Below are positions 9,888 to 33,327 of a stretch of 64,000 nt of DNA, one piece after another. The translations under genes and the position numbers were made by a program. Where the stretch lies: positions 99,392 to 163,391 of the forward strand of contig JAUJOY010000002.1 in NCBI GenBank assembly GCA_030447385.1, written 5' to 3'. Numbering within the stretch: position 1 is the stretch's first letter; the number at the start of each line of letters is the position of its first letter. The notes beneath the pieces are model-generated. The model saw nothing but the letters and a program-made list of their open reading frames with translations, did not search any database and was not told where the DNA came from. Source of the stretch: Mycobacteriales bacterium. GTDB taxonomy: Bacteria > Actinomycetota > Actinomycetes > Mycobacteriales > SCTD01.

Positions 9888-9936
9888 GACCAGCTGTGAC
9901 CGACCGCACACTCGTCCTGACCCGTAGGAGCGACAG

Positions 9937-11349: not shown

Positions 11350-11433
11350 CGTCCGCGCACTCCTCCCTGCCCCTGATCGTGAGCACCTCTTCTTCCCCTG
11401 CGCTGCGCAGGGCCTGACTCCAGGAGTTCCTGT

Positions 11434-13335
11434 ATGTGCTTCAAGACCCTGCCGGTCTCGTTCGACGGTCGCGGCAACGCGACGTTGCGGGGCGGCGCCA
11501 ACCCGTACGGCTACACCAACTCCACCCCCAACCACGTCGAGGTGACGGAGACCGAGCGCGAGGAGCGCATCAAGCGGCTGGTCGCGCGCAACGGGCACAT
11601 CAAGGACCTCAACATGGACCCGATCACCCGCATCGCGGGTGCTCTGGCGCTCCACGTCCAGGCAGACCTGGACAACGGTGAGTACCTCGACGCCCACGCG
11701 CAGGCCACGCTCTTCCGCGGCTACGAGCTCATCCTCATGGGCCGCGACCCGCGCGATGCCATCTTCGTGTCCTCGCGGGCCTGCGGCGTGTGCGGTGGCG
11801 TGCACGCGCACTGCGCCGCCTACGCCATCGAGATGGCGATGGGGATCAAGCCGCCGCCGCTCGGCACGGTGGTGCGCAACATGGAGCAGGCCGCCGAGAT
11901 GGGCTACGACAACCCGCTGCACCTCTACCTGCTGGCCGGACCGGACTACTCGGAGTCGGTCATCAAGGCGTCCAACCCGGAGCTGTGGCCGCTGGCGGAG
12001 TCGTGGCCGTGCCCCAACGCGCACATCCACGGCTTCAAGAAGATGTCCGACCTGATGGTCGCGCTCAACCCGCTGACCGGTTCGCTCTACCGCGAGGGCC
12101 TGGACTTCACCCGCCTGTCCCGCGAGATCGTCGTCATCCTCACCGGCAAGTACCCCCACCCGCAGAACGTCGTGCCCGGTGGGGTCTCGACGACGCTCAC
12201 GCTGCAGACGCTCAACGAGTTCCACTCCAAGCTGGGTCGCATCTTCGACTACGCCCAGCGGATGATGGCCGTCTGGGACGACATCCCGGCCTTCTTCTAC
12301 GAGGCCGACGAGCGCTACATGCAGGTCGGCTCGCGTCCGATGACCATGATCGACGCCGGCTACTGGGACGACCCGTACGCCTACGACGGCACCTACGAGA
12401 ACTGCAACGAGTGGGGCGACAAGCGCTGGTCGACTCCCGGAGCGGTCATCGACGGCAAGCTGGTGACGACCCGCCTCACCGACATCAACATCGGGCTCGA
12501 GGAGTTCGTCGAGCACGCCTACTACGAGCCCTCGCACACCACGCGCCACGCGACCGACCCGCTGGGCAACCCGCTCTCGCCCTGGCACCCGTGGAACAAG
12601 CGGACGCTGCCCAAGCCCGGCGCCCGGGACTGGAAGGACAAGTACACCTGGTCCACCTCCGTACGGTGGGACCGGCGCGCGGTCGAGGCAGGCTGCTACG
12701 CGCGCATGATCATCAACGCCCAGTCCAGGAAGATCCCGACCAGCGACTTCATCGAGTCCACCGGCCACAGCGTGCGCATGCTCGTCCCCAAGGGCGAGGT
12801 CGGCGAGCGGGAGGTCGAGTGGCACATGCCGGACGTGTGGAACGCCTTCGAGCGCAACCGCGCCCGCGCGCACCACTACCTCTACAGCCAGCTGGTCGGG
12901 CTCGAGAGCCTCTTCGAGGCCTACAAGCTCTTCCAGCAGGGTGAGCGCCAGGTTGCGAGCCTGACCCCGGAGGAGCTGGAGAAGGCGATCCCGCAGGACA
13001 ACCGCCTGGGTGTCGGCTTCTGGGGCGCCGGCCGCGGCTGGCTGGTGCACCACCTGGAGATGGACAAGGGCAAGCTCACCAACTACCAGATCACGACGCC
13101 CTCGACGCTCAACGCGTCGCCGCGCGACCCGTGGGGCAACCCTGGTCCCTACGAGGAAGCCGTCATGAACACGCCGATGATCGAGGACCTCTCCAACCCG
13201 GAGAGCTTCACGAGCATCGACATGATGCGCGCCATCCGCAGCTTCGACCCGTGCATGCCGTGCACCACGCACGCCTACACCGGCGACGGCGAGATCGTGC
13301 GTGAGGTCAACACGTGCTCGTGCGGCGGTGACTGA
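11434..13335 (+). CDS. [NiFe]-hydrogenase large subunit (group 1h/1l-like)
   Basis: L1 motif SRACGVCGGVH, L2 motif SFDPCMPCTTH, DPITRI, GAGRGWLVH. Confidence 0.95.
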   Translation: MCFKTLPVSFDGRGNATLRGGANPYGYTNSTPNHVEVTETEREERIKRLVARNGHIKDLNMDPITRIAGALALHVQADLDNGEYLDAHAQATLFRGYELILMGRDPRDAIFVSSRACGVCGGVHAHCAAYAIEMAMGIKPPPLGTVVRNMEQAAEMGYDNPLHLYLLAGPDYSESVIKASNPELWPLAESWPCPNAHIHGFKKMSDLMVALNPLTGSLYREGLDFTRLSREIVVILTGKYPHPQNVVPGGVSTTLTLQTLNEFHSKLGRIFDYAQRMMAVWDDIPAFFYEADERYMQVGSRPMTMIDAGYWDDPYAYDGTYENCNEWGDKRWSTPGAVIDGKLVTTRLTDINIGLEEFVEHAYYEPSHTTRHATDPLGNPLSPWHPWNKRTLPKPGARDWKDKYTWSTSVRWDRRAVEAGCYARMIINAQSRKIPTSDFIESTGHSVRMLVPKGEVGEREVEWHMPDVWNAFERNRARAHHYLYSQLVGLESLFEAYKLFQQGERQVASLTPEELEKAIPQDNRLGVGFWGAGRGWLVHHLEMDKGKLTNYQITTPSTLNASPRDPWGNPGPYEEAVMNTPMIEDLSNPESFTSIDMMRAIRSFDPCMPCTTHAYTGDGEIVREVNTCSCGGD

Positions 13336-15027: not shown

Positions 15028-16256
15028 CTCCACCCACCTTCCAGACCCGCGGCTTCGGCCGCGGTGTTGAGGCTGGCCGCCAGCCGTTGCCACTGCGGGA
15101 TGGCGAACCGTGCCATCGCCGAGCCGAAGACCGCGCGCAGCCGTTCCGCTTCGGCCTCCGGGCGGCCGGCGGCCGCCTGGACGAACGACGCCATCACCAT
15201 CTCGTAGCTGCGCGGCGGCAGCTCCAGCACGACGTTGAGCAGGTGCTCGGCGAGGTCGTAGGCGATGCTGGGCCGGCCCAGCACGCCGTCGAGGAACCAC
15301 CGGACCACCTCGGTCCGGCCGGCGGCCGGGAGCTCGAGGGCGCGCAGCAGCTCGGAGCGGATCACCCCGTCCCACTGGTCCTTGTCGTCCTCCGAGTCGA
15401 GCACGGTCATGAGGTCGTCGGCCACTCGCCCGGGCAGCCGGTCGAGGACCTCCTGCGACTGGGCGCGCACCGGCGGCGCCGCACTCGGGATCGCCAGCGC
15501 CTGGCCGGCGGCCAGGCGCGCCCGGGGCGCGTCACCGGTCTGCTCGTAGGCCAGGGCGAGGTTGGCCTTGACCATGGCGTGCTCGGCAGGGCGCAGCGTG
15601 CGCGGGAACGCCGCGAGGGCACGCTGCAGCGCGAGCACGGCCTCCGCCGGCTTCTCGGCGGCCAGCAGGGCCAGGCCCAGCGCGTTGCCTGCGGCGCCGG
15701 TGTTGGCGCTGTCCGTCGCCTTCTCCGCCAGCTCCAACGCCTGCGCCAGCAGCCGAACTGCGGCCTCCACGTCGCCCTCGGTGAGCAGCGAGGCCCCGGC
15801 CTCGCGGGCCGCTGCAGAGGCCTGGGAGGGAAAGCCCGCCTTCACGAAGAGCTCGCGGGCGCGGTCCCAGGCCTCCCGAGCGCCCTTCAGGTCCCCGGTG
15901 TCCTGCAGGACCAGCCCGAGGTTGAACGAGGCCGCCGCCTGCTCCGCCGGCTGGTCGAGGGTCGCGAGCTCCTCATACGCCGTGGAGAAGGCCTCCTTGG
16001 CCTTCTCGCGCTGCCCCGCCGTGCGCAGGGCGGCCCCCAGCATGACGCTGGTCTTCGCGTGCTCGAGCGTCATCCCGGCCTTGCCGAAGACCTCGCGCGC
16101 CGTGGTCAGCGACGTCAGGGCCTTGCGGGTCTCGCCGGTCTGCAGCTGCATCGTCCCGAGGTGGAACTGCGTCGTCGCGTGCTGCACCGGGTAGCGGTCG
16201 ACCGGGTAGCGGCCGAGCTTCGCGATGAGGTCTTGCGCCGAATCGGCCACGAGCAC
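15024..16256 (-). CDS. Tetratricopeptide-repeat protein
   Basis: Repeated helical units (FHLG, FNLGLV, NALGLA, ANLALA). RBS-like GGAAAGG before GTG. Confidence 0.8.
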   Translation of the reverse strand: MLVADSAQDLIAKLGRYPVDRYPVQHATTQFHLGTMQLQTGETRKALTSLTTAREVFGKAGMTLEHAKTSVMLGAALRTAGQREKAKEAFSTAYEELATLDQPAEQAAASFNLGLVLQDTGDLKGAREAWDRARELFVKAGFPSQASAAAREAGASLLTEGDVEAAVRLLAQALELAEKATDSANTGAAGNALGLALLAAEKPAEAVLALQRALAAFPRTLRPAEHAMVKANLALAYEQTGDAPRARLAAGQALAIPSAAPPVRAQSQEVLDRLPGRVADDLMTVLDSEDDKDQWDGVIRSELLRALELPAAGRTEVVRWFLDGVLGRPSIAYDLAEHLLNVVLELPPRSYEMVMASFVQAAAGRPEAEAERLRAVFGSAMARFAIPQWQRLAASLNTAAEAAGLEGGWR

Positions 16257-16269
16257 CTACCCTTTCCCT

Positions 16270-16770
16270 ATGAATGCTGTGGTGGCGTGCTTCGGCAACG
16301 TGCTCAAGGCCGACGACGGCGTCGGTCCCGCTGTGGCGCACGCTCTGCACGAGGAGGGGCTGCCCGACGGCGTCCGCGTGATGGAGGTCGGCATCGGTGG
16401 CATCCACCTGCTGCAGGAGCTGATGCGCGCACCCGCGGACGTGCTGCTGATCGTGGACGCCGTCGACCTCGGCCGCCCCGCCGGCAGCGTCGTGGTGCAG
16501 CGTCCCGAGGTGCTCGACGTCAACAAGCTCCCGGTGCACCAGCGGCGCGACCAGCTCTGCGACATGCACCTGGCCACGCCGGCGAAGACCATGACGTTCG
16601 CGCTGGGCATGGGCGTCCTGCCGCCGACGACACTGGTCGTCGGGGTGCAGACGACCGACACCTCCGAGCCGCGGGTGGGGCTGTCGGAGGTGACGGCGCG
16701 GACGGTGCCCGTCGTCGTGAGCGAGGTGCTGCGCCTGCTGGCCCAGCACGCCCCCGCCCCCCTGCCCTGA
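16270..16770 (+). CDS. Hydrogenase maturation endopeptidase (HybD/HupD family)
   Basis: CFGNVLKADDGVG, LIVDAVD, DMH.A.P, GLSEV. Confidence 0.88.
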   Translation: MNAVVACFGNVLKADDGVGPAVAHALHEEGLPDGVRVMEVGIGGIHLLQELMRAPADVLLIVDAVDLGRPAGSVVVQRPEVLDVNKLPVHQRRDQLCDMHLATPAKTMTFALGMGVLPPTTLVVGVQTTDTSEPRVGLSEVTARTVPVVVSEVLRLLAQHAPAPLP

Positions 16771-16803: not shown

Positions 16804-17400
16804 TCAGTCCGGCGGGCGGGTCGTGATCTGGAGCAGCACGGTGCTGCCCGAGGGCGGTGCGTGCGCCGCCGCCCCGTCGTCGGGCGCGACGTCCATGGAC
16901 ACGAAACCGGGCAGGTTCTCCCGCAGCGCCTCCTCGACGCCGTGCCGGAGCGTCTCACCGGCCGACGTGCACCCCGAGCAGGCGCCGACGAGGCGTACGC
17001 GCACCACGCCGTGCTCCACACCCAGCACCTCGACCTCACCGCCGTGCTCGTGCAGGTAGGGCCGGATCTGCTCGAGCGCGTCGTTGGCCGCCTCGGGGTC
17101 GTTGACCCCCACGCCGTAGGCCTCGAAGAGCCAGTCGATCGCCGGGTCGGACCGGCGGAGGGCTTCCAAGTCGAGCCCAGGGGAGTCGGCGAGCCTGGTG
17201 ACCGCCAGCCGGTGCACGGCGTCGACGCCGTCGAGCAGCTCGAAGACCCGGTTGCGCACGTCCTCGTCCAGGCCCTCGATGTCGCCCAGCAGCTCCTCGA
17301 GCCGGTCGAGCAGCGGCCCCATCGCGGCCAGTGAGGCGTCCGCGAGCTGCTCAGGGGACCTCGCCTCAGGCTCGGTCTCTGCCTCGGACTTCACGGTCAT
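16804..17400 (-). CDS. NifU/NfuA-like Fe-S protein
   Basis: IRPYLHEHGGEVEV...GACSGC NifU C-terminal motif. ATG at 17400 with RBS AGGAG. Confidence 0.85.
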   Translation of the reverse strand: MTVKSEAETEPEARSPEQLADASLAAMGPLLDRLEELLGDIEGLDEDVRNRVFELLDGVDAVHRLAVTRLADSPGLDLEALRRSDPAIDWLFEAYGVGVNDPEAANDALEQIRPYLHEHGGEVEVLGVEHGVVRVRLVGACSGCTSAGETLRHGVEEALRENLPGFVSMDVAPDDGAAAHAPPSGSTVLLQITTRPPD

Positions 17401-17720
17401 CTGTGTGCTCCTGTGGGGGGGTCGTCGTGCAGGTGATGCGCGGGCGGCTGTGCGGAGGTGGAGCGGAGAGGCGACGTCCCGCAGCGAGATCTCCGAGACG
17501 TCGCAGACGCCGGTCAGGTCACCGTTGCCGGGGCAGTGCACCGTGCCCCAGAATGTCCTGAGCGTAGCGCGCACAGCCCGAGGAGGCCGGTTACCGTAGT
17601 GGCCGAGCACCGTCACGAGCGGCGCCAGCAGCAGCAACCCGAGGGCCGTCCGACCCGGAGGACGACAACTTCACCAGCTTCCTGCTGCTCGAGGTCTGCG
17701 TGCCACGAGTGTCACCTGCA

Positions 17721-17765: not shown

Positions 17766-18554
17766 ATGACCACAGTGGCAAGCCAACTTCAGCTGAAGCT
17801 CGGTGTCGTGGGCAAGGGCGGCGTCGGCAAGACGACGGTCTCCGGCCTGGTGGCCCGCCGCTACGCCGAGCGCGGGCGACAGGTCGTCGCGGTGGACACC
17901 GACTCCAACCCCAACCTCGGGCTCTCGCTCGGCCTGTCCCTCGAGGAGATGGAAGCCGTGCCGGTGCTGCCCCGCGCCACCATCGTCGGCATCGGCGGGT
18001 CGGCCTCCTCCGCCGACCTGCTCGCGGAGTACGGCCGCTCCACGCCGGCGGGTCCGACCCTGCTGTCGGCCATCAAGGTGGCCCAGGCGGGCGCCGGCTG
18101 CACCTGCAGCGGCCATGCGACCGTCCGCAGCCTGCTGTCCGACGCGCTGGAGAACGTCGACCTGACCCTGGTCGACATGGAGGCTGGTCTGGAGCACCTG
18201 AGCCGGTCCGGCGGGACCCTCGCCTACGCCGACCTGCTGCTGGTCGTCTGCGAGCCCACGCGCAAGTCGGTCCTCACCGCCTCGCGTACGGCGTCCCTCG
18301 CCGCCGAGCTGGGCATCCCGGGGGTGCTGGCCGTGGGCAACAAGGCCAAGTCGCCCGAGGACGTCGCCTTCTTCCGCGACACCCTGACCTCCGAGGGAAT
18401 CGAGATCGCCGGCATCCTGCCCTACGACCCGGAGGTGGCAGCAGCAGACCGGGTAGGGGAAGTGGGCCTTCAGCCGGTCGCCCCGGCCGTCCAGGCTGCG
18501 CTGGACGAGGTGCTGGACGCGCTGGACAAGGCGCGGGCGCGCATCGAGACGTGA
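17766..18554 (+). CDS. CooC-like nickel-insertion ATPase (paralog 2)
   Basis: GKGGVGKTT, DTDSNPNL, GCTCSGH, DMEAGLEHLSR, CEPT.KS, GNK, PYDP. Confidence 0.88.
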   Translation: MTTVASQLQLKLGVVGKGGVGKTTVSGLVARRYAERGRQVVAVDTDSNPNLGLSLGLSLEEMEAVPVLPRATIVGIGGSASSADLLAEYGRSTPAGPTLLSAIKVAQAGAGCTCSGHATVRSLLSDALENVDLTLVDMEAGLEHLSRSGGTLAYADLLLVVCEPTRKSVLTASRTASLAAELGIPGVLAVGNKAKSPEDVAFFRDTLTSEGIEIAGILPYDPEVAAADRVGEVGLQPVAPAVQAALDEVLDALDKARARIET

Positions 18555-18564
18555 GCGGGCCGGG

Positions 18565-19806
18565 TCACTGCTCGCGTGCGATCGAGCGCACGGTGACCAG
18601 GCCGTAGGCGGCTGCTGCCAGCAGGAGCACACCGCCGAGCAGGTACACCGCCGTGATCCCGGCGACCTCGGCCAGCGCGCCGCCGAGCCCGAGCGAGACC
18701 AGTCGCCCGCTCTGCCACAGCAGGTCCATGGAGGCGAGCACGCGCCCGCGCAGGCGCTCGGGGGTCTCCGCCTGCAGCAGCGAGGTGAAGGTGACCGCCC
18801 CGCTCGACGTCGCCAGGCCGTACGCCGTGAGCGACCCTGCTGCCACCGGAAGCCGGGAGGTGCCGGCGAGGACCAGGTCGACGCCTCCCCGCAAGGCGAA
18901 CGGGCCGAAGACGAACAGGGGCCGTCGAGGCGTGCGGACCAGGCGCAGGAGCAGCAGTGGCCCCAGCACGGCGCCCACCCCGATCGCTGCGAGCAGCAGG
19001 CCGTACCCGGTTCCGCCGACCTGCAGCTGCTCGCGCGCGTAGACGACCAGCAGCGCGCTGGTGGCCCCGCTGGACAGAGCGGCCAGCAGCTGGGCCACCG
19101 CCAGTGCCCGCAGGAGCCGGTCGGCGAGCAGGGCTCGCGCACCCTCGCGCGCGTCGGCGAGGAGGCGGCCGCGGGGCGGCGTCGGCAGGGCAGCAGGGAC
19201 GCGCAGCCCGCGGAGGGAGGCGGCGCTCGCGAGGTAGCTCGCCGCGTTGACCGCGAAGCCCCAGCCGAACCCGAACGTGACCACGACCAGCCCCGCGAGC
19301 GGCGCGAGGGCGATCTGCGACAGCACCGCGGCGGTCCAGATGCCGCTGTTCGCGGCCACCAGGGCGTCCTTGTGCACCAGAGCGGGCAGCACCGACCCGG
19401 CAGCCGGGGAGAAGAACACCGCGCCGCAGGACAACCCGAACGCGACCGCCAGGAGGACCGCGAGGCTGTCGTGCTCCACGACCAGCACCCCGGCGAGGCC
19501 TGCGCGGACGACGTCGGCGGCCACCATCACCTGCACCCGCGGGAGCCGGTCCACCAGGGCTCCCGCGAAGGGGGCGAGGAGCAGGACCGGCAGGATCTCC
19601 GCGCCGACCACGGCGGTGACGCCGAGCCCCGAGCCGGTCAGCTCATAAGCCAGGAGGGCGAGCGTGACCGCATGCACGATGTCGCCCCACTGCGAGGCGG
19701 TCCGCGCACCCCACAGCCGGCGGTAACCCGGTGCGGCGAAGACCGCTCGCAGCCGCGGACGTGGGGCGAGGGGAGGCAGGCCGGAGGCCGCCGCAGGCTC
19801 CTCGAT
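18565..19806 (-). CDS. MFS transporter (DHA3/NreB-like; possible nickel exporter); start codon uncertain
   Basis: About 12 hydrophobic segments; GALVDRLPR, PERLRGRV. MFS-like sequence (PGYRRLWGARTASQWGD) extends upstream of the first GTG at 19677. Confidence 0.75.
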   Translation of the reverse strand: MEEPAAASGLPPLAPRPRLRAVFAAPGYRRLWGARTASQWGDIVHAVTLALLAYELTGSGLGVTAVVGAEILPVLLLAPFAGALVDRLPRVQVMVAADVVRAGLAGVLVVEHDSLAVLLAVAFGLSCGAVFFSPAAGSVLPALVHKDALVAANSGIWTAAVLSQIALAPLAGLVVVTFGFGWGFAVNAASYLASAASLRGLRVPAALPTPPRGRLLADAREGARALLADRLLRALAVAQLLAALSSGATSALLVVYAREQLQVGGTGYGLLLAAIGVGAVLGPLLLLRLVRTPRRPLFVFGPFALRGGVDLVLAGTSRLPVAAGSLTAYGLATSSGAVTFTSLLQAETPERLRGRVLASMDLLWQSGRLVSLGLGGALAEVAGITAVYLLGGVLLLAAAAYGLVTVRSIAREQ

Positions 19807-19811
19807 GCGCG

Positions 19812-20546
19812 CTAGCCGGTGGTCAGCAGGCGGTTCGCGAGATCGACCAGCACGCGGACGGCGGGTGCGTCCGGGGAGGCGTCGAGCGGAGAGACGCCGC
19901 TGCGTTCCGCCGCGACGATCGCCGGGTCGTCCGGGACGAGGACGACCTCGACGTCCGGGAAGGTCTCTCGGATGCGCTGCTCGTCTGCGGCATCGCGCAC
20001 GCGGTTGGCCGCGACCACGATGTGCCCCAGCTTGTTCTCGCGCACCGTCTCCGCGGCGCGGCGGCCCACCTCGAGCGACTTGGCCGTGGGCTCGACGACG
20101 ACGACGACCACGTCGACGGGATTGCCTTCCAGGCGCAGGACCGTGCCGATGCCGGCCTCGAAGTCGGCGACGACCACGCGGTCGGGACGTGCGAGCTGCC
20201 CGAGCAACTGCTCAGGTGAGATGCCACATCATGGACAGCCTGGTTCGGGATTCTGGATCGCGGTCACCACGGCGAGTCGCACACCGTCAGGCGCGTCGAC
20301 GCCGAAGTTGGTCACGAGCTCGTCGGCGGTTGCCGGGTGCTGCTCCTCGCCCGCGTCGACGGCGTCACGCACCGAGATCAGCCGCTCGGTCTCCAGCTCG
20401 CCGATGCCGAGGGAGATCCCGAGGTTGGGGTTGCTGTCGCAGTCCAGCGCCAGCGTGGTGCGGCCGGAGCGCGCAATGGTGCGAGCCAGGATCGCGGAGG
20501 TCGTCGTCTTGCCCGACCCGCCCTTGCCTACGATGGCGATCTTCAT
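19812..20546 (-). CDS. CooC-like ATPase (paralog 3) with in-frame UGA at codon 106; candidate selenoprotein
   Basis: ORFs 20229..20546 and 19812..20207 are in the same frame. Read-through gives GKGGSGKTT...PGCP(U)CG...ADFEAG...VEPTAKS...ANR...PDDP, 244 aa, similar in length to the paralogs. Confidence 0.75.
20199..20216 (-). other. Putative bacterial SECIS hairpin CCUGAGC-AGUU-GCUCGGG
   Basis: 7-bp stem, 4-nt loop with G at position 2, loop 19 nt 3' of the UGA at 20231..20229. Confidence 0.55.
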
Positions 20547-21301
20547 ACGCGCTCCGTCTCCTTCTGCAGGGTTGCGACCAGCGAACGAACCGCCGTGGCG
20601 GTGGGGCCTTGTGGGTCGTGGTCCAGAACGGCGAGGCCCAGCCGGTCCGCCTCGCCGACAGCCGGGTCGAAGGGAACCGCCCCCAGCAGGGGCAGTCCGG
20701 TGCGCGCCGAGACCTGCTCGGCGTCCTGGGGCTCGCGCACCTTGTTGGCGATGACCAGCACCCGCGGCGCGCCCTGCATGCCGGCCAGCCTGGCAAGCCG
20801 GCGCCCAGTCAGCAGGGAGGCCGGGGTCGGCTCGACGACCACGAGGTAGGTCTCGGCGTAACGGCCCCAGGTGGCGAACGGCTGGCGGGTGCCCCCTGGA
20901 AGGTCACCCACGATGCTCCAGCCCGAATCGGGCAGGTCGTCCATCAGGCGCTGGAAGCCGAAGTGCTGGCGGGAGTTGTTCCACCGGCCGCCCCGCGCCT
21001 TGCCCAGCTGCAGGAAGTAGACGCCCTCGGCGCTGCGCACGGCGTACTGCTCGACTGCGTCGGAGCCGGTCAGGCCGGCCCGCAGCCGGTAGCGCCGTCG
21101 GCCCTCCTCCTCGTACTCCTCCACGGCCTCGTCGGGCAGCCCGACGTCGCTCTGCGGCAGCCCGAGGGAGAACGCCATGCCCGGCATCGGGTCGGAGTCC
21201 AGCGCGAGGACCCGCTCTCCGGTGCCCGCCAGGACGCGGGCGAACGTCCCGGACAGCGAGGATTTTCCGGCTCCACCCTTGCCCACGAAAGCGACACGCA
21301 T
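20543..21301 (-). CDS. CooC-like ATPase (paralog 4) lacking the CxC motif
   Basis: GKGGAGKSS, DSDPMP, VEPT, ANK, PFDP; no Cys at the motif position. Stop overlaps the paralog-3 start (ATGA). Confidence 0.8.
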   Translation of the reverse strand: MRVAFVGKGGAGKSSLSGTFARVLAGTGERVLALDSDPMPGMAFSLGLPQSDVGLPDEAVEEYEEEGRRRYRLRAGLTGSDAVEQYAVRSAEGVYFLQLGKARGGRWNNSRQHFGFQRLMDDLPDSGWSIVGDLPGGTRQPFATWGRYAETYLVVVEPTPASLLTGRRLARLAGMQGAPRVLVIANKVREPQDAEQVSARTGLPLLGAVPFDPAVGEADRLGLAVLDHDPQGPTATAVRSLVATLQKETERV

Positions 21302-21338
21302 GCCGTGACTGTAGGCCGGAAGCGCACGAGCCGTCTCG

Positions 21339-21359
21339 CTAGAGTCGCCACACATCTAC
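21339..21359. promoter_or_regulatory. Candidate operator CTAGAGTCG-CCA-CACATCTAC in the divergent cooC/hypC promoter region
   Basis: Right half matches the 9867 motif; a TACACT -10-like hexamer lies about 10 bp downstream. Confidence 0.4.
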
Positions 21360-21409
21360 CGGAAAGGCTTACACTTGGGACATCCCCCCCGCAGCAAGGA
21401 GAGCTCGAC

Positions 21410-21727
21410 ATGTGCCTCGGCATCCCCGGCCAGATCGTGGAGATCAACGACCCCGGGCAGCAGCGCGTGAAGGTCGACGTCGAGGGCGTGCGGCGTGAGG
21501 TCTCCGTCTCCCTGATCGGCCTCGACGGTCCGGACGGCGCGCAGGTGGGGGACTGGGTCCTGGTCCACGTCGGCTTCGCGATGGCCAAGATCGACGAGGC
21601 GGAGGCCAAGGAGACGCTCAACGCCCTCAAGTCCCTCGGCGACCTCTACGAGCAGGAGCTGTCCGACTACTCCGCGGATGTCGAAGGGCTCGAGGACCAC
21701 TGGCCTGCGGTAGTAGGCAAGTCGTGA
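21410..21727 (+). CDS. hypC: Hydrogenase maturation chaperone HypC
   Basis: MCLGIPGQIVE, VGDWVLVHVGFA; RBS AAGGAG. Confidence 0.95.
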   Translation: MCLGIPGQIVEINDPGQQRVKVDVEGVRREVSVSLIGLDGPDGAQVGDWVLVHVGFAMAKIDEAEAKETLNALKSLGDLYEQELSDYSADVEGLEDHWPAVVGKS

Positions 21728-22458
21728 CCGTCACGCACCCGGCAGCCACCTCCCAGCCGGTTGCGGACGACGGCCTTCCGGAGGGCCTCGCGGACGGTCT
21801 CGCGGCCGCCTCACTGGTGCTGGCTCGCCGGCTGCACGCCGGCGGGACCCTGTGGTGCGCCTCGCCGTCCTGGCCGCACCACGCCCAGCACGTCGCGGTG
21901 GAGTTCGTCCACCCCGTCATCGTCGGCAAGCCTGCCCTGCCCGCGGTGGCCCTGCCGACGCACGAGCTGACGGCGAACGCGCGGGCGAACGTCCGTCCCG
22001 GCGACGTCCTGGTCGTGATCGGCGCGGCTGACGACCCGGTCGTCCGCGACCTCGTCCGCCGTGCACCCGCGTGGGACCTCGTGACCCTCTGGGTGGGGGC
22101 CGGGACGCCGCCGGCGGCGGGCGCCGCTGACCACGTCCTCTGGCTGCCCGAAGACGAGATGGCCGCGCACGATGGACGCTTCATCCTGCTCTACCACCTG
22201 CTCTGGGAGCTGGCGCACGTGTGCCTCGAGCACGGCGGCGTCCTCGAGCCGGAGCCGGAGTGCGACGGCCCCGTGTGCATCACCTGCTCCGACGAGGGCC
22301 GCCTCGTGGAGGTCGTACGCTCCTCGGGCAGCACCGCGCGGGTGCGCTCCGGCGACGGCCTCGAGGACGTGGATCTGAGCCTGGTCGGGCCGGCCGGGCC
22401 CTACGACCTGCTGGTCGTGCACGCCGGCATGGCGATCACCCGCCTGGGCGCGCCGTGA
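21724..22458 (+). CDS. SIS-domain / HypC(HupF)-like fusion protein
   Basis: AQHVAVEFVHPVIVGKPALPA (SIS-like), then CDGPVCITCSDEG and LVVHAGMAI (HypC-like). Confidence 0.75.
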   Translation: MTVTHPAATSQPVADDGLPEGLADGLAAASLVLARRLHAGGTLWCASPSWPHHAQHVAVEFVHPVIVGKPALPAVALPTHELTANARANVRPGDVLVVIGAADDPVVRDLVRRAPAWDLVTLWVGAGTPPAAGAADHVLWLPEDEMAAHDGRFILLYHLLWELAHVCLEHGGVLEPEPECDGPVCITCSDEGRLVEVVRSSGSTARVRSGDGLEDVDLSLVGPAGPYDLLVVHAGMAITRLGAP

Positions 22459-23111
22459 CGTCGTCCGGGAGCTTCCTCTACCCCATGCTCGACGCTCCGG
22501 AGCGGGACGCCTCCGCGCTGCTGGCGGACCTGGCCCGCTCGGCGCAGGCCAAGGCCATGGAGAGCACCACGGTCCGCACGACGACCATGACGTCCCAGGC
22601 AGCGGGGCTCGACCGGGCCGCGGAGGCCATGGCGGCGGCGTTCTCTGCGGGGGGCCGGCTGTTCTGCTTCGGCAACGGCGGATCGGCCACCGACGCGGCC
22701 GGCCTGGCGGCGCTGTTCGCGTCCCCGTCCACCGGCCGATCACTGCCGGCGCGGTCGCTGGTGGCCGACAGCTCCGTGCTCACCGCGCTCGCCAACGACA
22801 TCGGCGTCGACGTCATCTTCGCCCGGCAGCTCATCGCGCACGCGCAGCCCGGTGACATCGCGCTCGGGTTGTCGACCAGCGGTGGCTCGGTCAACGTCCT
22901 CAAGGCGTTCGCCGAGGCCCGGCGGCGGGGGCTGCTGACCGTCGGCCTCGCCGGCTACCGCGGCGGCGCGATGGGCACGAGCAGCGACCTCGAGCACTGC
23001 CTCGCCGTCGATGCCCAGAGCGTGCACCGCACGCAGGAAGCGCAGTCCGCGCTGGCCTATGCCCTGTGGGAGCGCGTCCAGGAACGTCTAGAGCACGAGG
23101 AGATCCGGTGA
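22455..23111 (+). CDS. Phosphoheptose isomerase (GmhA)-like SIS protein
   Basis: GNGGSATDA, LTALAND, FARQL, STSGGS.NV, HRTQE. Confidence 0.85.
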   Translation: MTSSGSFLYPMLDAPERDASALLADLARSAQAKAMESTTVRTTTMTSQAAGLDRAAEAMAAAFSAGGRLFCFGNGGSATDAAGLAALFASPSTGRSLPARSLVADSSVLTALANDIGVDVIFARQLIAHAQPGDIALGLSTSGGSVNVLKAFAEARRRGLLTVGLAGYRGGAMGTSSDLEHCLAVDAQSVHRTQEAQSALAYALWERVQERLEHEEIR

Positions 23112-24247
23112 AGTACGTCGACGAGTACCGCGATCCCGCAGCCGCCCGGCTCGCGGTCCGGCGCATTACCGAGCTGGCCGAGGGTGGGCGCAACGGCGTG
23201 CCGTACGCCTTCATGGAGGTCTGCGGCGGGCACACGCACACGATCTACCGGCACGGGATCGAGCAGCTGCTGCCCGAGACCGTCGAGCTGGTGCACGGCC
23301 CCGGCTGCCCGGTCTGCGTGATCCCGATGGGGCGCGTCGACGACGCGATCTCACTGGCCGAGCAGCCCGGCGTCATCTTCACCTCCTTCGGCGACATGAT
23401 GCGCGTGCCCGGCAGCACCTCGAGCCTGCTCGAGGCCAAGGCGCGGGGCGCCGACGTGCGGATGGTCTACAGCCCGCTCGACGCGCTGAAGATCGCCATG
23501 GCTAACCCGGACCGCCGGGTGGTGTTCTTCGCCGTCGGCTTCGAGACGACCGCGCCATCCACTGCGGTCACGCTCCTTCGCGCCCGCGAGGCCGGCGTCA
23601 CCAACTTCAGCGTGTTCTCCAACCACGTCACGATCGTGCCGCCGCTCAAGGCGATCCTCGACTCCCCGGACCTGCGCCTGGACGGCTTCCTCGGCCCGGG
23701 TCACGTCAGCACCGTCATCGGCAACCGGCCGTACGACTTCGTGCCGCAGCGCTACGGGCTGCCGCTGGTGACCGCCGGCTTCGAGCCGCTCGACATCCTG
23801 CAGTCCGTCGTGATGCTGCTGCAGCAGTACGCCGACGGACGCTGCGAGGTCGAGAACCAGTACAGCCGCATCGTGACCGACGAGGGCAACCCGATCGCGA
23901 TGCGGATCCTCCAGCAGGTCTTCACGCTGCGTCCGCACTTCGAGTGGCGTGGCCTCGGCTTCATCGCCCAGAGCGCGCTCGCGCTCAACGAGGACTTCGC
24001 GGCCTACGACGCGGAGCGGCTGTTCGCGCTGCCGGGCGTGCGCGTGGCCGACCCGAAGTCCTGCCAGTGCGGCGAGGTCCTCAAGGGCGTCATCAAGCCC
24101 TGGGAGTGCAAGGTCTTCGGGACGGCCTGCACCCCCGAGACGCCCATCGGCACGTGCATGGTCTCCTCCGAGGGTGCCTGCGCGGCCTACTACACCTTCG
24201 GCCGGCTCCACAAGACCGCCGCCGGCCTCGCCGCGGCGTCGGCGTGA
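23108..24247 (+). CDS. hypD: Hydrogenase maturation protein HypD
   Basis: MEVCGGHTH, GPGCPVC, GFETT, PGHVS, CMVSSEGAC. Confidence 0.97.
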   Translation: MKYVDEYRDPAAARLAVRRITELAEGGRNGVPYAFMEVCGGHTHTIYRHGIEQLLPETVELVHGPGCPVCVIPMGRVDDAISLAEQPGVIFTSFGDMMRVPGSTSSLLEAKARGADVRMVYSPLDALKIAMANPDRRVVFFAVGFETTAPSTAVTLLRAREAGVTNFSVFSNHVTIVPPLKAILDSPDLRLDGFLGPGHVSTVIGNRPYDFVPQRYGLPLVTAGFEPLDILQSVVMLLQQYADGRCEVENQYSRIVTDEGNPIAMRILQQVFTLRPHFEWRGLGFIAQSALALNEDFAAYDAERLFALPGVRVADPKSCQCGEVLKGVIKPWECKVFGTACTPETPIGTCMVSSEGACAAYYTFGRLHKTAAGLAAASA

Positions 24248-25335
24248 CCGCCGTCCAACCCGAGGGACGACAGGAGCTCGTCCTCGAGCGGGTCGAGACC
24301 TTCCGCCGGCGCCGGCCGCGGCTGACCGACAAGGTCGTCACGCTGGCGCACGGCGCCGGGGGCAAGTCCTCCGCCGCCCTGATCGACAAGGTGTTCCTCG
24401 AGGCCTTCCGCAACGACGCCCTCGAGCAGCTGGGCGACGGTGCGCTGCTCGAGCTCCCCTCCGGTGAGCGGCTCGCCTTCGCCACCGACTCCTACGTCGT
24501 GCGCCCGCGCCGGTTCCCCGGCGGGTCGATCGGCCACCTGGCGGTGCACGGCACGGTGAACGACCTCGCGATGTGCGGTGCCCAGGCGACGTGGCTGTCG
24601 GCGGCGTTCGTCATCGAGGAGGGGTTCCCGATCGACGAGCTGACCGCGATCGTCGCCGACATGGCGGAGGCGGCAGCGACGGCGGGCGTGCAGATCGTCA
24701 CCGGCGACACCAAGGTGGTCGACACCGGCGCGGCGGACGGGTGCTACATCACGACCGCCGGCATCGGCATCGTGCCCGAGGGACGGCGCTTCGGCGCCGA
24801 CCTGGTGCAGCCGGGCGACGTCGTGCTCGTCAGCGGGACCCTCGGCGACCACGGGGTCGCCGTCCTGCTCGCGCGCGGTGACCTCGACCTCGAGGCCGAC
24901 GTCCAGTCCGACACCGCGCCGCTGCACGAGCTCATGGAGGTCCTCCTCGCAGCGGCTCCAGGGACCCGCTGGCTGCGCGACCCGACCCGCGGCGGGGTCG
25001 GGACGGTCTGCAACGAGCTGGCCGCCGACGCCGAGGTCGCGGTGGTCCTGCAGGAGTCGGCGCTGCCGATCCGCCGGCCCGTGCTCGGTGCCTGCGACCT
25101 GCTCGGCATCGACCCGCTCTACGTGGCCAACGAGGGCAAGCTGCTGGCGGTGGTGCCCGCGGAGCAGGCCGAGGCCGCCCTGAAGGCGATGGTGGTGCAC
25201 CCGCTCGGGACCGACTCGGCGATCATCGGGCGGATCGCCGCCGAGCCGGAGCGGATCGTGCTGCTCGAGACCTCGTTCGGCGGCACCCGCATCGTGGACA
25301 TGCTCGTCGGGGACCCGCTGCCTCGCATCTGCTGA
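24244..25335 (+). CDS. hypE: Carbamoyl dehydratase HypE
   Basis: LAHGAGG, GTVNDLA, RDPTRGG, ANEG, C-terminal LPRIC. Confidence 0.97.
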   Translation: MTAVQPEGRQELVLERVETFRRRRPRLTDKVVTLAHGAGGKSSAALIDKVFLEAFRNDALEQLGDGALLELPSGERLAFATDSYVVRPRRFPGGSIGHLAVHGTVNDLAMCGAQATWLSAAFVIEEGFPIDELTAIVADMAEAAATAGVQIVTGDTKVVDTGAADGCYITTAGIGIVPEGRRFGADLVQPGDVVLVSGTLGDHGVAVLLARGDLDLEADVQSDTAPLHELMEVLLAAAPGTRWLRDPTRGGVGTVCNELAADAEVAVVLQESALPIRRPVLGACDLLGIDPLYVANEGKLLAVVPAEQAEAALKAMVVHPLGTDSAIIGRIAAEPERIVLLETSFGGTRIVDMLVGDPLPRIC

Positions 25336-25366: not shown

Positions 25367-27430
25367 CTATCGCAGCAGGAAGCGGTCGAGGCGGATGCCG
25401 GAGTAGGAGTCCAGCACCTGCGCCGCGCGCCGCTCCGCCTGCTCCGCCGCCTCGAGCTCCTCCTGGGCGATCTGGCGGGCCGTCTTCTCAGGCTGCCGAG
25501 GGGGCGCGGGGGGGCGCCGGGCGCCGCCGCCGGCGTGCCGCATCCGCAGCTGCTCGGCCTGCTGGCGCTTCTTGATCGCCCGGGTCTCGATCGAGATGCG
25601 CCGCAGGAGCTGGGCCTGCTGCGCCTTGAGCTGCTGGCGCTCCTGCTCGGCGGCCTTCCGGATGGCCTCGACGTCCTCCGGCGGAAGCGTGCTCGGGGCG
25701 GTCTTCATCGCCTTGTTGACCTCGCCGCGGTGCCAGGCCTTCAACGCCTGCACACCCGCTCCGTCCAGGCCGTCGATGAGGTAGCGCTGACCCCGCCGGT
25801 CCACGATGAGGCCGACCTTCCGCTTGCCGGCAGCGGGGCCGACCGTCACCGAGCCGATGTCGGCGGCGGTCACGATGCCGACCTGCGCCATGTGGCGGGT
25901 GATTCGGGGATGGATGCCCCACAGGATCGAGCGGGTGATGACGAGGGGCTTCAGCTGCTGGACGACGTGCGCCTCCTGCACGGCTTCCAGTGCCTCACGC
26001 AGACGGCCCGCCTCGGTCTGCTGCAGCTCGGCGAGGGCCTGCGTCACCTGCGCCTTCTCCTCCTGCGCCTGCGCGGTCACCCGCTCGATCTCGATCTGCT
26101 CGCGGCTCGCGCCGGGCGTCCCGCCCGCTGGCGTCGCCGCGGCGGGGGGTGCGCGGTGAGGCGACGGCCGTCCGGTGCGCAGGCGTTCTGCCGCAGCGAA
26201 CCGCTCCTCGCGGGCTGACTGCAAGGCGTACGCCGCCCGCTGCCGGTCGGCGAGCTCGGGCTGCGCGCGGTAGGCGGGCACGGCGATGGCCACCGCCGCG
26301 AGGAGCGACAGGGCAACCACCGGGATGCCCACGACGGGGAGCAGCACGGCGACCGGCATCGCGAGCAGCCCGAGGACGGCCAGCGCGAGGCACAGCCGCG
26401 AGCTGCCGAGGCCGCCCGAGAAGGTGACGGGCCGCACCTGCTGCGGGCGCCCTGTCGGGATGGCGGGTGGGTCCTGGACCGTCCTGGCGGAGGGAAGCGG
26501 GTCGTAGCCGCCACCGGTCAGGATCTCGTCCGGCGAGGGCAGACCTGCGGGCTCGAACTCCGGGACAAAGGACAGGGCCCTGGCGCTCCAGCACGTCTCG
26601 AGCGCGGCAAGAGCGGTGGAGAACTGCGGCATCCCGGCGAGAGCGGAGAGCACCTGCCGGTCCTCGAAGTCCTCGCGCCCGAACAGGAGCTTCTCCTCGC
26701 CCTCGGCGTGGAACTCCGTCCACAAGCCCGGGTCCTCGATCAGCAGGAGCAGGCTGACGTAGATGAGCCAGGCCGAGAAGTCGTCCAGCTTGTCGTCGTA
26801 GTCGTTCATGGTGCGCAGCGGCGACTGGTAGTTGATGTGGCCCATCTCGGCCGCGCCGTGCTCGATCAGGCTCTTGGAGAACATCCCGTCGTAGTCGATC
26901 AGCCGCAGCCGGCCGGCCCGGTCCACGATCAGGTTGCCGTGCTGCAGGTCCCCGTGTGCGAGCCCGGCGTCCTGCAGGTCGTTCACCATGTCGGCGAAGT
27001 CGAGCGCGAGATCGGCGATGGCGCCCGACTGCTCGAGGTTGCGCTCCAGCCACGGGATCAGGCCGGAGGCCTCGATCCACTCCATCTTCAGGATGGGGTA
27101 CCAGCTGCCCCGCACGAGGATGCCGGACTGCTGGTAGTCGAAGCCGATCTGCCAGGAGGTGTTCAGGTCGGCCAGGCCCGCCGACACCGCCTCGTAGCGG
27201 ACCTGCTGGTCGGGCACGTGCCGGGTGAAGCACTTCACCGCGTAGCGCTTGCCGTTTCCCCCCACCACGCTGAAGACGCTCGCGAAGTTGCCCGAGATGG
27301 CCCTCGGCATGCCGAGCGGGGTCGTCTGGACGTCGCCGCCCCGCAGGTCCTTGTCCCGAAAGCAGCTGCCGGTGTTCTGCAGCGCCTCGGCGTAGTCGCT
27401 GCTGCTGGGGTACTTCTTCGGGCTCGCCAT
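25367..27430 (-). CDS. Membrane Ser/Thr protein kinase (YegI/TerY-P type)
   Basis: SGNFASVF, AVKCF, HGDLQHGN, LIDYDG; two TM helices; coiled-coil C-terminus. Confidence 0.85.
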   Translation of the reverse strand: MASPKKYPSSSDYAEALQNTGSCFRDKDLRGGDVQTTPLGMPRAISGNFASVFSVVGGNGKRYAVKCFTRHVPDQQVRYEAVSAGLADLNTSWQIGFDYQQSGILVRGSWYPILKMEWIEASGLIPWLERNLEQSGAIADLALDFADMVNDLQDAGLAHGDLQHGNLIVDRAGRLRLIDYDGMFSKSLIEHGAAEMGHINYQSPLRTMNDYDDKLDDFSAWLIYVSLLLLIEDPGLWTEFHAEGEEKLLFGREDFEDRQVLSALAGMPQFSTALAALETCWSARALSFVPEFEPAGLPSPDEILTGGGYDPLPSARTVQDPPAIPTGRPQQVRPVTFSGGLGSSRLCLALAVLGLLAMPVAVLLPVVGIPVVALSLLAAVAIAVPAYRAQPELADRQRAAYALQSAREERFAAAERLRTGRPSPHRAPPAAATPAGGTPGASREQIEIERVTAQAQEEKAQVTQALAELQQTEAGRLREALEAVQEAHVVQQLKPLVITRSILWGIHPRITRHMAQVGIVTAADIGSVTVGPAAGKRKVGLIVDRRGQRYLIDGLDGAGVQALKAWHRGEVNKAMKTAPSTLPPEDVEAIRKAAEQERQQLKAQQAQLLRRISIETRAIKKRQQAEQLRMRHAGGGARRPPAPPRQPEKTARQIAQEELEAAEQAERRAAQVLDSYSGIRLDRFLLR

Positions 27431-27431
27431 G

Positions 27432-28241
27432 CTAGGGAAGCCGAACGCTGAGCAGGGTGACGTCGTCGTTCTTCAGGCGGCCGCTGGCCCGCTCGCCCGC
27501 GATCCACTCGGCGAAGCCCTGCTGGGAGAGCCCGTCGGTGAGTGCACGCCAGAGCAGCCACGGCTGGGTGCCCTGCTCGTCCTGCGTCAGGAACCAGGCA
27601 GCCAGGGCGTCGGTGCACAGGAAGAACTGGTCACCGCTGAGGAAGGTGCCGGAGGCGTACGCGCGGTGCTTGTCGAGCAGGCGCCGGCTGCGCAGCCCCG
27701 TGTGGACCAGTGCGGGGGAGCTGTCGAACTGTGCGGCGTGCGAGAGCGGGAACGCCTGCTTCATGCCGTTGTCAGTCACGTGGAACAGGCAGCTGTCGCC
27801 GACTGCCTCCGCCGTCCACGTGCCGGAGAAGCCCGACGGGTCCAGCCGGAACTCCGCGACCAACAGCGTCGCGTGCGCCCCGCGGTCGAGCCCGGGCTCC
27901 TCGTACCAGGCGATCGGCTTGTCGGCCTTCTCGCGCTCTGCCTTGTAGTCTCCGACGATCTGCGGCCAGGCGGCCTGGGCCCGCCGGACGCACCTGCGCA
28001 GCTGGGGCTGGGCCATGGACGTGTAGGTGTGCACGAGCGCCGAAGCCCAGTGCCCGGACAGCATGCTCTCCGTCGCCCCGTCGGCGACGGCTACCCGCAG
28101 CCGCCGTCCCTCGGAGGTCAGCGACCAGAAGCCCTCGGTTCCGGGGTCGCTGATGGAGAAGGCGTCTTCGTACTCGCGCGACTCGGAGCCGTTCTTCTGG
28201 CACCAGTACGCGTGCGCATCCCCTCGCATGGGCTTCGCCAC
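27432..28241 (-). CDS. PP2C-like protein phosphatase
   Basis: EYEDA, AVADGA, VGDS, CTDAL, NDDVT. Confidence 0.85.
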   Translation of the reverse strand: MAKPMRGDAHAYWCQKNGSESREYEDAFSISDPGTEGFWSLTSEGRRLRVAVADGATESMLSGHWASALVHTYTSMAQPQLRRCVRRAQAAWPQIVGDYKAEREKADKPIAWYEEPGLDRGAHATLLVAEFRLDPSGFSGTWTAEAVGDSCLFHVTDNGMKQAFPLSHAAQFDSSPALVHTGLRSRRLLDKHRAYASGTFLSGDQFFLCTDALAAWFLTQDEQGTQPWLLWRALTDGLSQQGFAEWIAGERASGRLKNDDVTLLSVRLP

Positions 28242-28247
28242 CCGGTC

Positions 28248-29084: not shown

Positions 29085-29309
29085 AGGGTCCTTCTCCCGG
29101 GGTGGCTGGCGAACGTGGGCACGTCGGTGCGGGGGCGGTTCTGCGCTGGTGCGAACCTTGACAGGATCCGCCCGGATCGTCCACCGGTGGCGCAGCCTGC
29201 GGTGACCCCGAGTTCTACCGCGGGTCGAGGGTTACCGGCAGGTACGGGCGCTGCTGCCGGGGCGGATCCGCCACCTGCTCGAGGGAGCTGACCTGCCGCT
29301 TGTGCGATG

Positions 29310-30927: not shown

Positions 30928-30931
<4 letters not shown>
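29999..30931 (+). CDS. Secreted His-rich heavy-metal-associated protein
   Basis: Signal peptide; [25 protein letters not shown]; located inside the cop operon. Confidence 0.75.
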
Positions 30932-33309
<2,378 letters not shown>

Positions 33310-33327
33310 GCCGATGATCGTGGCCTC

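Follow-up and report, generated by a model that had tools for sequence, protein, structure and literature searches.

A 64,000-nucleotide stretch of the genome of a soil bacterium of the Mycobacteriales (GenBank assembly GCA_030447385.1, contig JAUJOY010000002.1, positions 99,392 to 163,391; hereafter, the window, whose numbering is used unless another contig is named) carries, within a cluster of [NiFe]-hydrogenase genes, a gene for a CooC-type ATPase whose reading frame contains one UGA codon. Comparison with orthologous sequences indicates that this UGA is almost certainly a selenocysteine (Sec) codon and the product a genuine selenoprotein. The role of the protein as a nickel chaperone is inferred from homology and genomic context: it probably delivers Ni to the hydrogenase, and the combined reading, in which a selenoprotein supplies Ni to a group-1h enzyme, is likewise the one that we favour.

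An earlier examination of the same DNA, made from the letters alone (hereafter, the sequence-only reading), had described the gene as a single frame with one UGA. Indeed, the minus-strand frame opens with ATG at 20546 and closes with TAG at 19814..19812, TGA at 20231..20229 being the sole interruption. Read through, 19812..20546 (-) yields a product of 244 residues with one recoded codon, U106, embedded in N-P-E-P-G-C-P-U-C-G-I-S-P-E-Q-L-L-G (GAA CCA GGC TGT CCA TGA TGT GGC ATC TCA CCT GAG CAG TTG at the DNA level), and the listing of open reading frames (ORFs) under translation table 11 cuts the gene into 20229..20546 and 19812..20207/20227. Its start codon shares bases with the stop codon of an upstream paralogue (GTATGA) and follows a GGAG located 6 nt upstream. 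The features of the gene are as follows:

19812..20546, minus strand: predicted Sec-containing CooC-type ATPase, complete coding sequence (CDS) of 244 codons, C104-P-U106-C107-G
20229..20231, minus strand: UGA, predicted selenocysteine codon 106 (60-locus column, tRNA-Sec anticodon tracking, alignment with CooC1 Cys114)
20199..20216, minus strand: hairpin of the selenocysteine insertion sequence (SECIS) type; CCUGAGC at 20216..20210, loop AGUU at 20209..20206, GCUCGGG at 20205..20199

By sequence and motif, the product is assigned to the CooC type, that is, to deviant-Walker-A ATPases of the CooC branch of the MinD/ParA/NifH fold. It matches the Pfam CbiA/MinD-ParA family (4.3e-12) and displays the deviant Walker A signature GKGGxGK[ST] of the MinD-class fold; all motifs that had been listed as retained on both sides of the UGA are present in the read-through protein (GKGGSGKT at residues 7-14, DFEAG, EPT, NR and PDDP). 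The closest solved relative by sequence is CooC1 of Carboxydothermus hydrogenoformans (3kje, 2.8e-11), followed by MinD (3.9e-6). In the HMMER alignment, C104 falls on Cys112 and U106 on Cys114 of the CooC1 CxC metal site, which binds Ni or Zn at the dimer interface, so that the second Cys is replaced by Sec. The proposal that the UGA occupies the second Cys of a CxC motif is hence sound as to position, and needs amending as to the motif, which is C-P-U-C-G (CPCCG in the Cys forms) rather than a bare CxC. An AlphaFold2 model built on 40 sequences has a pLDDT of 87.9, with the motif loop less confident (~70), and Foldseek retrieves MinD, FleN, CooC1 (TMq 0.74) and NifH (TMq 0.72-0.74) about equally well with it; since the fold search does not separate CooC, MinD, FleN and NifH, only the sequence search puts CooC1 first. 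None of the NCBIfam models scores the protein over its cut-off, the best being minD_arch (44.4 bits vs a cut-off of 201.75); NifH-family models score far under theirs, and no HypB/G3E model occurs among the 25 NCBIfam families listed for the protein, which is not a HypB member.

The source genome (13 contigs totalling 3.41 Mb; rated completeness 100%, contamination 1.33%) gave no match to CooS (PF03063) at E<=0.001, and the usual association of CooC with nickel-dependent carbon monoxide dehydrogenase (Ni-CODH) was not found. Because CooS was not found and the neighbours are hydrogenase and hyp genes, we use the names CooC-type and CooC-like rather than CooC.

The codons around the UGA are, as had been remarked, rare for this genome, in which the G+C content of third codon positions (GC3) is 0.946 over 823 crude long ORFs: within their synonymous families, CCA accounts for 2.7%, TGT for 3.6%, TCA for 2.2%, CCT for 3.7% and TTG for 1.5% genome-wide. 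TGA is the usual stop codon, ending 603 of the 823 ORFs, and is therefore not reassigned genome-wide.

Conservation of the recoded codon, its hairpin and its tRNA

Orthologues were sought by six-frame searches that read through stop codons. They were found in 8 of 41 related genomes (61-100% identity), each with exactly one TGA, always at C-P-U-C-G. A class-level sample of 401 genomes contributed six further orthologues, five with TGA and one with TGT, and a scan that took a single genome from each species yielded 66 loci, with L059-L104 as orthologues (52-80% identity) in Nocardioidaceae, Geodermatophilaceae, Pseudonocardiaceae, Mycobacteriales, Nitriliruptorales and Acidimicrobiales as well as in metagenome-assembled genomes (MAGs) of Anaerolineales and Dormibacterota. 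The pooled set comprises 60 loci, some of them the same record reached twice, and holds 54 distinct 66-nt segments plus L071; six of the loci come from genomes flagged as unpublished (G021, G030, G046, G071, G442 and G445), and the conclusions are independent of these.

At the Sec column, the 60 loci carry a single TGA (n = 41), a double TGA (n = 8), TAG (n = 4) or TGC/TGT (n = 7), and in no case TAA. The TGA, which might have been peculiar to one strain, is thus shared by 49 of the 60 orthologous loci. All 48 distinct Sec forms reach a normal stop with no frameshift and no extra stop. Median pairwise dN/dS is 0.24 upstream of the Sec codon (1123 pairs) and 0.40 downstream (1128 pairs), values that are rough because dS is probably distorted by the extreme GC3, and which speak for purifying selection on the 3' half. 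In the double-TGA orthologues (L083-L088, L096 and L101), the motif reads U-x-U-C-G, the second TGA lying two codons upstream and both being served by one downstream hairpin. Such U-x-U forms, in which both Cys of the CxC are replaced by Sec, arise at least twice on a tree of 53 orthologues and two paralogue outgroups made by a quick method. The same tree implies at least three Sec/Cys changes and places Sec forms on the deepest branches; because the search patterns bias the set of loci and 25 of the 52 inner branches are unsupported, no ancestral state is read from it.

The hairpin described by the sequence-only reading, CCUGAGC-AGUU-GCUCGGG with G as the second loop base, is found at 20216..20199, where it starts 12 nt after the UGA and forms 7 bp inside the CDS. 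It is conserved and covaries across the orthologues. In an alignment of 48 distinct Sec-form segments, 97.9% of the cells of the 7-bp helix hold a base pair. In 500 shuffles, neither the pairing score nor the covariation score was attained once, and pairing fell to 20-46% when the 3' arm was displaced by 1-3 columns. The outer pair is C-G in 29 sequences, G-C in 12 and unpaired in 7, and the third pair is C-G in 22, U-G in 21 and U-A in 5. When the outer pair is swapped, a Pro-to-Ala change (CCN to GCN) is accompanied, six codons further on, by a change that is either synonymous or converts Gly to Ser. The loop AGUU and its Leu codon TTG are retained in 47 of the 48 Sec forms, despite the rarity of TTG among the Leu codons of the genome (1.5%). 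The core 12-mer is identical in 45 of the 48 Sec forms vs one (L059) of six distinct Cys forms, in which 1, 7, 3, 3, 7 and 7 of the 7 pairs are formed. In the Cys form L054, the peptide P-E-Q-L-L is kept through common synonymous codons and the stem is reduced to one of seven pairs. L059, from a Nocardioidaceae MAG, is a TGC form with a hairpin identical to that of the Sec forms in a genome that gave no tRNA-Sec match, and looks like a recent Sec-to-Cys conversion.

The genome encodes the machinery for which the sequence-only reading had proposed a search. Profiles for selD (394.5 bits), selA (421.8) and selB (256.4) score over their curated cut-offs, all within 505-520 kb of contig C1, and ARAGORN places amid these genes, at C1:514855-514950, the sole tRNA-SeC among 48 tRNAs (96 nt, anticodon TCA). 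The cluster of selD, tRNA-Sec, selA and selB adjoins a canonical selenoprotein gene, fdhA (C1:497676-500804), with an in-frame TGA at C1:498177 in the motif I-U-H-S; its hairpin has a GUC loop and starts, as in the CooC-type gene, at +15 from the U of the UGA. The CooC-type gene thus has a covarying stem-loop 3' of its UGA, with a small apical loop bearing G(U) and a geometry like that of the genome's own fdhA hairpin.

Across genomes, the recoded codon changes together with the anticodon of tRNA-Sec. In the genomes with TGA forms, the tRNA-SeC anticodon is TCA in five of five tested (three of them with U-x-U forms), as in the genome of the window. In those with TAG forms, Modestobacter sp. 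DSM 44400, Geodermatophilus chilensis, Blastococcus saxobsidens and one Actinomycetota MAG, the best tRNA-Sec match has anticodon CTA in four of four (65-67 bits vs a gathering score of 47). The TAG loci themselves (L063, L067, L068 and L070; tRNAs L125-L128) keep the hairpin, and ARAGORN labels their CTA tRNA-Sec as tRNA-Pyl. None of five genomes with Cys forms gave a tRNA-Sec match at E<=1e-8, with 150 candidates scored per genome, an absence that is only suggestive because these genomes are incomplete MAGs. The co-change of codon and anticodon is the strongest single argument from sequence for Sec decoding: a plain stop would neither follow the tRNA-Sec anticodon nor be duplicated at the neighbouring Cys column. 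Collectively, the sel genes, the orthologue column, the covarying hairpin and the codon-anticodon tracking bear out the interpretation of the codon as Sec.

The prediction that standard pipelines would split the gene holds for public databases, which carry the Sec form as fragments of 105 aa and ~130 aa. A word-indexed protein database contains 1116 near-length homologues at E<=1e-20, and C-P-C-C-G is present in each of the top 120 (61-82% identity). Among 1785 short proteins matching at the same threshold, each of the best 120 covers half of a gene divided at the Sec codon, 62 of them N-terminal (exactly 105 aa, ending in GCP or DCP) and 58 C-terminal (starting at the hairpin TTG/ATG), from which we conclude that public annotation splits the Sec forms; they are named, among others, "AAA family ATPase", "CO dehydrogenase maturation factor" and "hypothetical protein". 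Gene callers start a spurious C-terminal ORF at the TTG of the SECIS loop (20206..20208 (-)), which accounts for the uniform N-termini LLGQLARP/MLGQLARP of the 58 database fragments (among P0123-P0242).

Among the listed sequencing runs, none of which is of RNA, two soil metagenome runs from a single study (perhaps the source sample itself) have contigs that agree letter for letter with 20193..20442 and 20202..20442, and two soil runs of other studies show no difference on 20229..20231 among those displayed (52 further differences are not displayed). In the soil runs X5 and X6, from other studies, summed contig depth peaks sharply at 20174..20255, over the Sec codon and hairpin, a pattern that would follow if this almost invariant segment were common to many related organisms. 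Genome-wide, a crude scan for TGA with a coding signature on both sides gave 61 candidates, nearly all of them adjacent same-frame genes; it recovered fdhA and a second CooC-like gene (see below) and missed the CooC-type gene itself, and is therefore uninformative about the full selenoproteome.

Hydrogenase neighbourhood and proposed role

The CooC-type gene is surrounded by the following genes of the window:

8056..8922, minus strand: CooCa, CooC-like paralogue with GCLC, adjoining a NikA-type ATP-binding cassette (ABC) transporter
9928..11349, plus strand: [NiFe]-hydrogenase small subunit (Pfam NiFe_hyd_SSU_C, Oxidored_q6)
11383..13335, plus strand: [NiFe]-hydrogenase large subunit, group-1h-like (Pfam NiFeSe_Hases), no in-frame stop
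16225..16770, plus strand: HycI-type hydrogenase maturation protease (Pfam HycI, 1e-11)
16804..17637, minus strand: NifU-domain protein (Pfam NifU, 4.3e-22)
17766..18554, plus strand: CooCb, CooC-like paralogue with GCTC, convergent with the operon of the CooC-type gene and beside that gene in many loci
18565..19677, minus strand: major facilitator superfamily transporter downstream of the CooC-type gene (Pfam MFS_1, 3.7e-28)
20543..21355, minus strand: CooCd, Cys-less CooC-like paralogue; its stop TGA overlaps the ATG of the CooC-type gene (ATGA), likely start M at 21301
21302..21727 (start approximate), plus strand: HypC, divergent from the operon of the CooC-type gene (Pfam HupF_HypC, 9.7e-28; frame-specific GC3)
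21724..22458, plus strand: protein ending in a HypC-like domain (26.4 bits, slightly below the 28.5 that Pfam requires; frame-specific GC3)
22221..23111 (start approximate, ~22455), plus strand: SIS-domain protein (domain match; frame-specific GC3)
23066..24247, plus strand: HypD (Pfam HypD, 1.7e-155)
23944..25335 (start approximate), plus strand: HypE (AIRS/AIRS_C domains)
33310..35631, plus strand: HypF (domain match)

A TPR protein is also encoded in the window, and the interval between hypE and hypF (25367..29231 (-) and 30847..33309 (+)) holds Ser/Thr-kinase-like, PP2C-like phosphatase, vWA and HMA-domain P-type ATPase genes. The CxC motif is intact in the neighbouring paralogues, as had been noted: GCLC in CooCa and GCTC in CooCb. 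CooCd has conserved GKGGAGKS, LQLGK and GDLPGGTRQ motifs, with no conserved Cys and no CxC. The large subunit has as its closest solved relative 5aa5 HofG, of the group-1h "actinobacterial" enzyme (1.3e-134), and is the sole [NiFe] large subunit found in the genome, which combines one group-1h-like hydrogenase, of the O2-insensitive type, and HypC/D/E/F with at least nine CooC-like loci.

When the proteins of the window were used as tblastn queries on the 35 orthologous loci of at least 6 kb, CooCd lay directly upstream of the CooC-type gene in 29, and at least one hydrogenase or hyp gene was present in 21. Among eight related genomes carrying the orthologue, G018, a fragmented assembly, gave only a weak large-subunit match. 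HypB (TIGR00073) and HypA (PF01155) gave no match in the source genome at E<=0.001, and HypB scored over its cut-off in one of 16 orthologue-bearing genomes examined. Since Ni-CODH, the canonical CooC client, was not found in the genome, the likely client of the CooC-type ATPase is the neighbouring group-1h hydrogenase; and as neither HypA nor HypB nor Ni-CODH was found in a genome rated complete, nickel delivery may proceed independently of HypA and HypB.

Under the mechanism that we propose, UGA 106 would be decoded as Sec by SelB and tRNA-Sec, directed by the 7-bp hairpin with the AGUU loop inside the CDS. Sec would fill the second position of a CooC1-like C-x-C metal site at the dimer interface, giving C-P-U-C-G, and synthesis of the protein may be translationally coupled to that of the Cys-less paralogue through the ATGA overlap. 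The ATPase would dimerise on ATP, presumably with itself or with the Cys-less partner, bind Ni(II) on its Cys and Sec ligands and hand it to the large subunit before processing by the HycI-type protease, so that a CooC-type step could take the place of HypA/HypB. At neutral pH a selenolate carries no proton, its ligands exchange faster, and it escapes irreversible over-oxidation, a chemistry that would suit a nickel site working in air; the advantage of Sec in an aerobe may accordingly lie in its lower pKa, faster ligand exchange and resistance to irreversible oxidation.

Several CooC-like genes lie elsewhere in the source genome (G000). A second subfamily, represented by C1:620436-621179 (+) (L043) and by L137 (G003) and L138 (G013), has a conserved in-frame TGA in the motif G-S-G-U-T-G-S-A-H, where Sec corresponds to the first Cys of CxC and the second position is Gly; 15 nt further 3' comes a conserved hairpin, GUCACG-GUC-CGUGAC. 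Its neighbourhood (Rieske/DUF2231, FtsH and Kelch genes) contains no hydrogenase genes and gave no functional lead. A Cys paralogue at C3:184442-185176 (GSGCTG) is without the hairpin. At C3:199038-199825, near a contig end, two CooC-like pieces occur in permuted order, the C-terminal half upstream of a TGA-containing N-terminal half, and may represent a rearranged or decayed copy.

Alternative explanations

The alternative that survives best, and which we nevertheless consider unlikely, accepts the protein as a genuine CooC-fold selenoprotein and gives it another job, such as carrying or repairing Fe-S clusters for the small subunit, or handling another metal or another client. The dimer interface is where NifH, Mrp and NBP35-type relatives hold their clusters, and NifH-type Fe proteins equal CooC1 in fold score. 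The motif C-P-U-C offers three chalcogen ligands vs two in CooC1, a NifU-domain gene is conserved nearby, and CooC-like paralogues occur away from hydrogenase genes, including the Sec-containing one beside Rieske/DUF2231 and FtsH. On the other hand, CooC1 is clearly the closest solved protein, the Sec column coincides with its metal-binding Cys, NifH-family models stay far under their cut-offs, the HypA and HypB that would perform the nickel step were not found in the genome, and the NikA-type ABC transporter belongs to the same cluster.

Several further observations weigh against a Sec-dependent nickel chaperone or narrow the support for it. With regard to function, the selenium in the protein, its nickel binding and its ATPase activity are predictions from sequence; an Fe-S role would be compatible with the additional Cys (CxUC) and with the NifU-domain gene close by; and the location of several paralogues outside hydrogenase clusters implies that the CooC-like family has other clients. 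The orthologue-bearing genome G439 has a true HypB (276 bits), and seven hydrogenase-bearing relatives without the orthologue are also without HypB, so that HypB absence is not specific to the CooC-type gene, a point that favours the other-cargo explanation. With regard to decoding, the Cys-form genomes without a tRNA-Sec match include a MAG rated only 72% complete. The hairpin is unremarkable as a single-sequence fold (-18.7 kcal/mol, z = -1.63; 11 of 200 shuffles fold as well), and its significance therefore comes from the cross-genome comparison; three of the six distinct Cys forms still pair 7/7, part of the conservation could stem from the conserved peptide P/A-E-Q-L-L-G, and an Rfam scan of 19700..20700 at E<=10 returned chance-level matches only and no SECIS family.

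Recoding of the UGA or UAG to Cys or another standard residue, for example by a Cys-accepting tRNA-Sec-like tRNA, is very unlikely. Cys is acceptable at this column, as the CPCCG of all best 120 homologues attests, and a 2026 paper brings up selC* (tRNA-ReC) where it deals with Sec/Cys variants of hydrogenases. Yet the single tRNA-SeC found by ARAGORN has selA and selD next to it, costly recoding and a constrained hairpin would have no evident rationale for Cys when TGC or TGT suffices, and the Cys-form genomes do use plain Cys codons. More improbable still is a programmed split gene, with a stop at codon 106 and a C-terminal half made separately from the hairpin TTG, even if these are the two products given by public gene calls. 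An ordinary stop codon would be expected to vary between TGA, TAG and TAA, whereas here TGA goes with UCA, TAG occurs only with CUA, and TAA is never seen; moreover, in eight loci a pair of stops separated by a single codon falls on Cys columns, the Cys forms are uninterrupted, and the split would sever a single P-loop domain between the Walker A motif and metal loop on one side and the D-F-E-A-G block that follows on the other. A recent nonsense mutation, pseudogene or assembly error, as the frame broken under table 11 might suggest, is effectively refuted by the comparative data: the same codon recurs in dozens of independent assemblies from several phyla, the soil-run contigs (possibly of the source sample) agree with it, and the 3' half is under selection with no further stops in 48 distinct sequences.

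Relation to known systems

A Sec-containing nickel chaperone of this type would extend the range of known selenoproteins, most of which are redox enzymes: Sec in the metal-trafficking site of an NTPase chaperone, in aerobes, would widen the known uses of this amino acid. It would also suggest a way in which group-1h hydrogenases could obtain their nickel in genomes that yield no HypA or HypB. More generally, and with somewhat less than even confidence, we suggest that in aerobic soil and desert Actinomycetota, and in some Chloroflexota and Dormibacterota, maturation of the O2-insensitive, high-affinity group-1h hydrogenase runs independently of HypA/HypB, through CooC-type ATPases that hold nickel on one or two selenolates (C-x-U-C/U-x-U-C). 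If so, trace-gas H2 oxidation in these lineages would depend on selenium supply, and Sec would for the first time be seen to act in a metallochaperone ATPase as a ligand for transient metal transfer, instead of as a redox residue in catalysis. The gene is widespread and systematically mis-annotated, so that hydrogenase-maturation inventories of soil MAGs hold two spurious ORFs per gene, and the natural series of Cys, Sec, Sec-Sec and UAG-Sec forms within one orthologous family offers a system for the study of Sec-Cys exchange and SECIS evolution.

We could not find this selenoprotein family in print: a known chaperone fold and a known recoding occur here in a combination that appears uncatalogued, with double-Sec and UAG-Sec versions. 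Table 1 of PMC13188914, a review of May 2026, lists 119 families and subfamilies with no CooC/MinD/ParA/CbiA-type ATPase among them, which agrees with the doubt, voiced in the sequence-only reading, that CooC is a known selenoprotein family. The main texts of deep-Sep, BSepDB, SelCysML and the mycobacterial Sec paper make no mention of a CooC, MinD, ATPase or nickel selenoprotein, although their supplementary tables may list the family; similarly, a full-text literature search for CooC with selenocysteine or selenoprotein gave nothing relevant, an earlier listing in a supplementary table being possible.

UAG decoding has a precedent in the Geodermatophilaceae, which read UAG as Sec via tRNA-Sec(CUA), as reported by Mukai et al. 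2016 (cited after PMC10778597 and PMC5330540) and confirmed by Santesmasses et al. 2017 (PMC5330540). The combination of this tRNA with TAG is shared with the present loci, and the anticodon is reproduced here in Modestobacter, Geodermatophilus and Blastococcus; the difference is that the selenoproteins named for those genomes in the passage concerned of PMC5330540 are formate dehydrogenase (FDH), UGSC-motif and AhpC proteins, a CooC-like gene not being among them. The only P-loop metallochaperone-type NTPase among the 119 families of PMC13188914 is the CobW-related selenoprotein NF041053 (UxxC), which likewise has Sec in a Cys-rich metal motif of such an NTPase; it differs in being a G3E GTPase rather than a MinD/CooC-type protein, in having UxxC rather than CxUC, and in having no hydrogenase link. 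In hydrogen metabolism, Sec serves as a nickel ligand in the [NiFeSe] hydrogenases (PMC13188914). There, Sec belongs to the active site of an enzyme of anaerobes, whereas here it is placed in a putative maturation factor, and the large subunit encoded in the window, unlike those of [NiFeSe] hydrogenases, has no in-frame stop.

The job proposed for the CooC-type protein, Ni delivery to the large subunit, is that of HypA/HypB. Neither of these was found in the source genome, and both are of other kinds, HypB being a G3E GTPase and HypA a zinc-finger protein. HypB is an NTPase with Cys-rich metal sites. In Thermococcales, hydrogenase Ni insertion is served by an archaeal HypB of the Mrp/MinD ATPase type, which works with HypA; it is not among the nine PDB sequence matches of the CooC-type protein at E<=0.001, and we know of no Sec form of it. 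The nearest known system is CooC1 (3kje, 3kjg, 3kjh and 3kji), the Ni-insertion ATPase for Ni,Fe-CO dehydrogenase, with which the CooC-type protein shares the fold, GKGGxGKT and a Cys112-x-Cys114 site that aligns with C104-P-U106. It differs from CooC1 in having no CooS detected in its genome, in the predicted Sec at the second Cys (or U-x-U in some orthologues), in the extra Cys of CxUC, in its location within a hydrogenase cluster, and in its pairing with a Cys-less paralogue.

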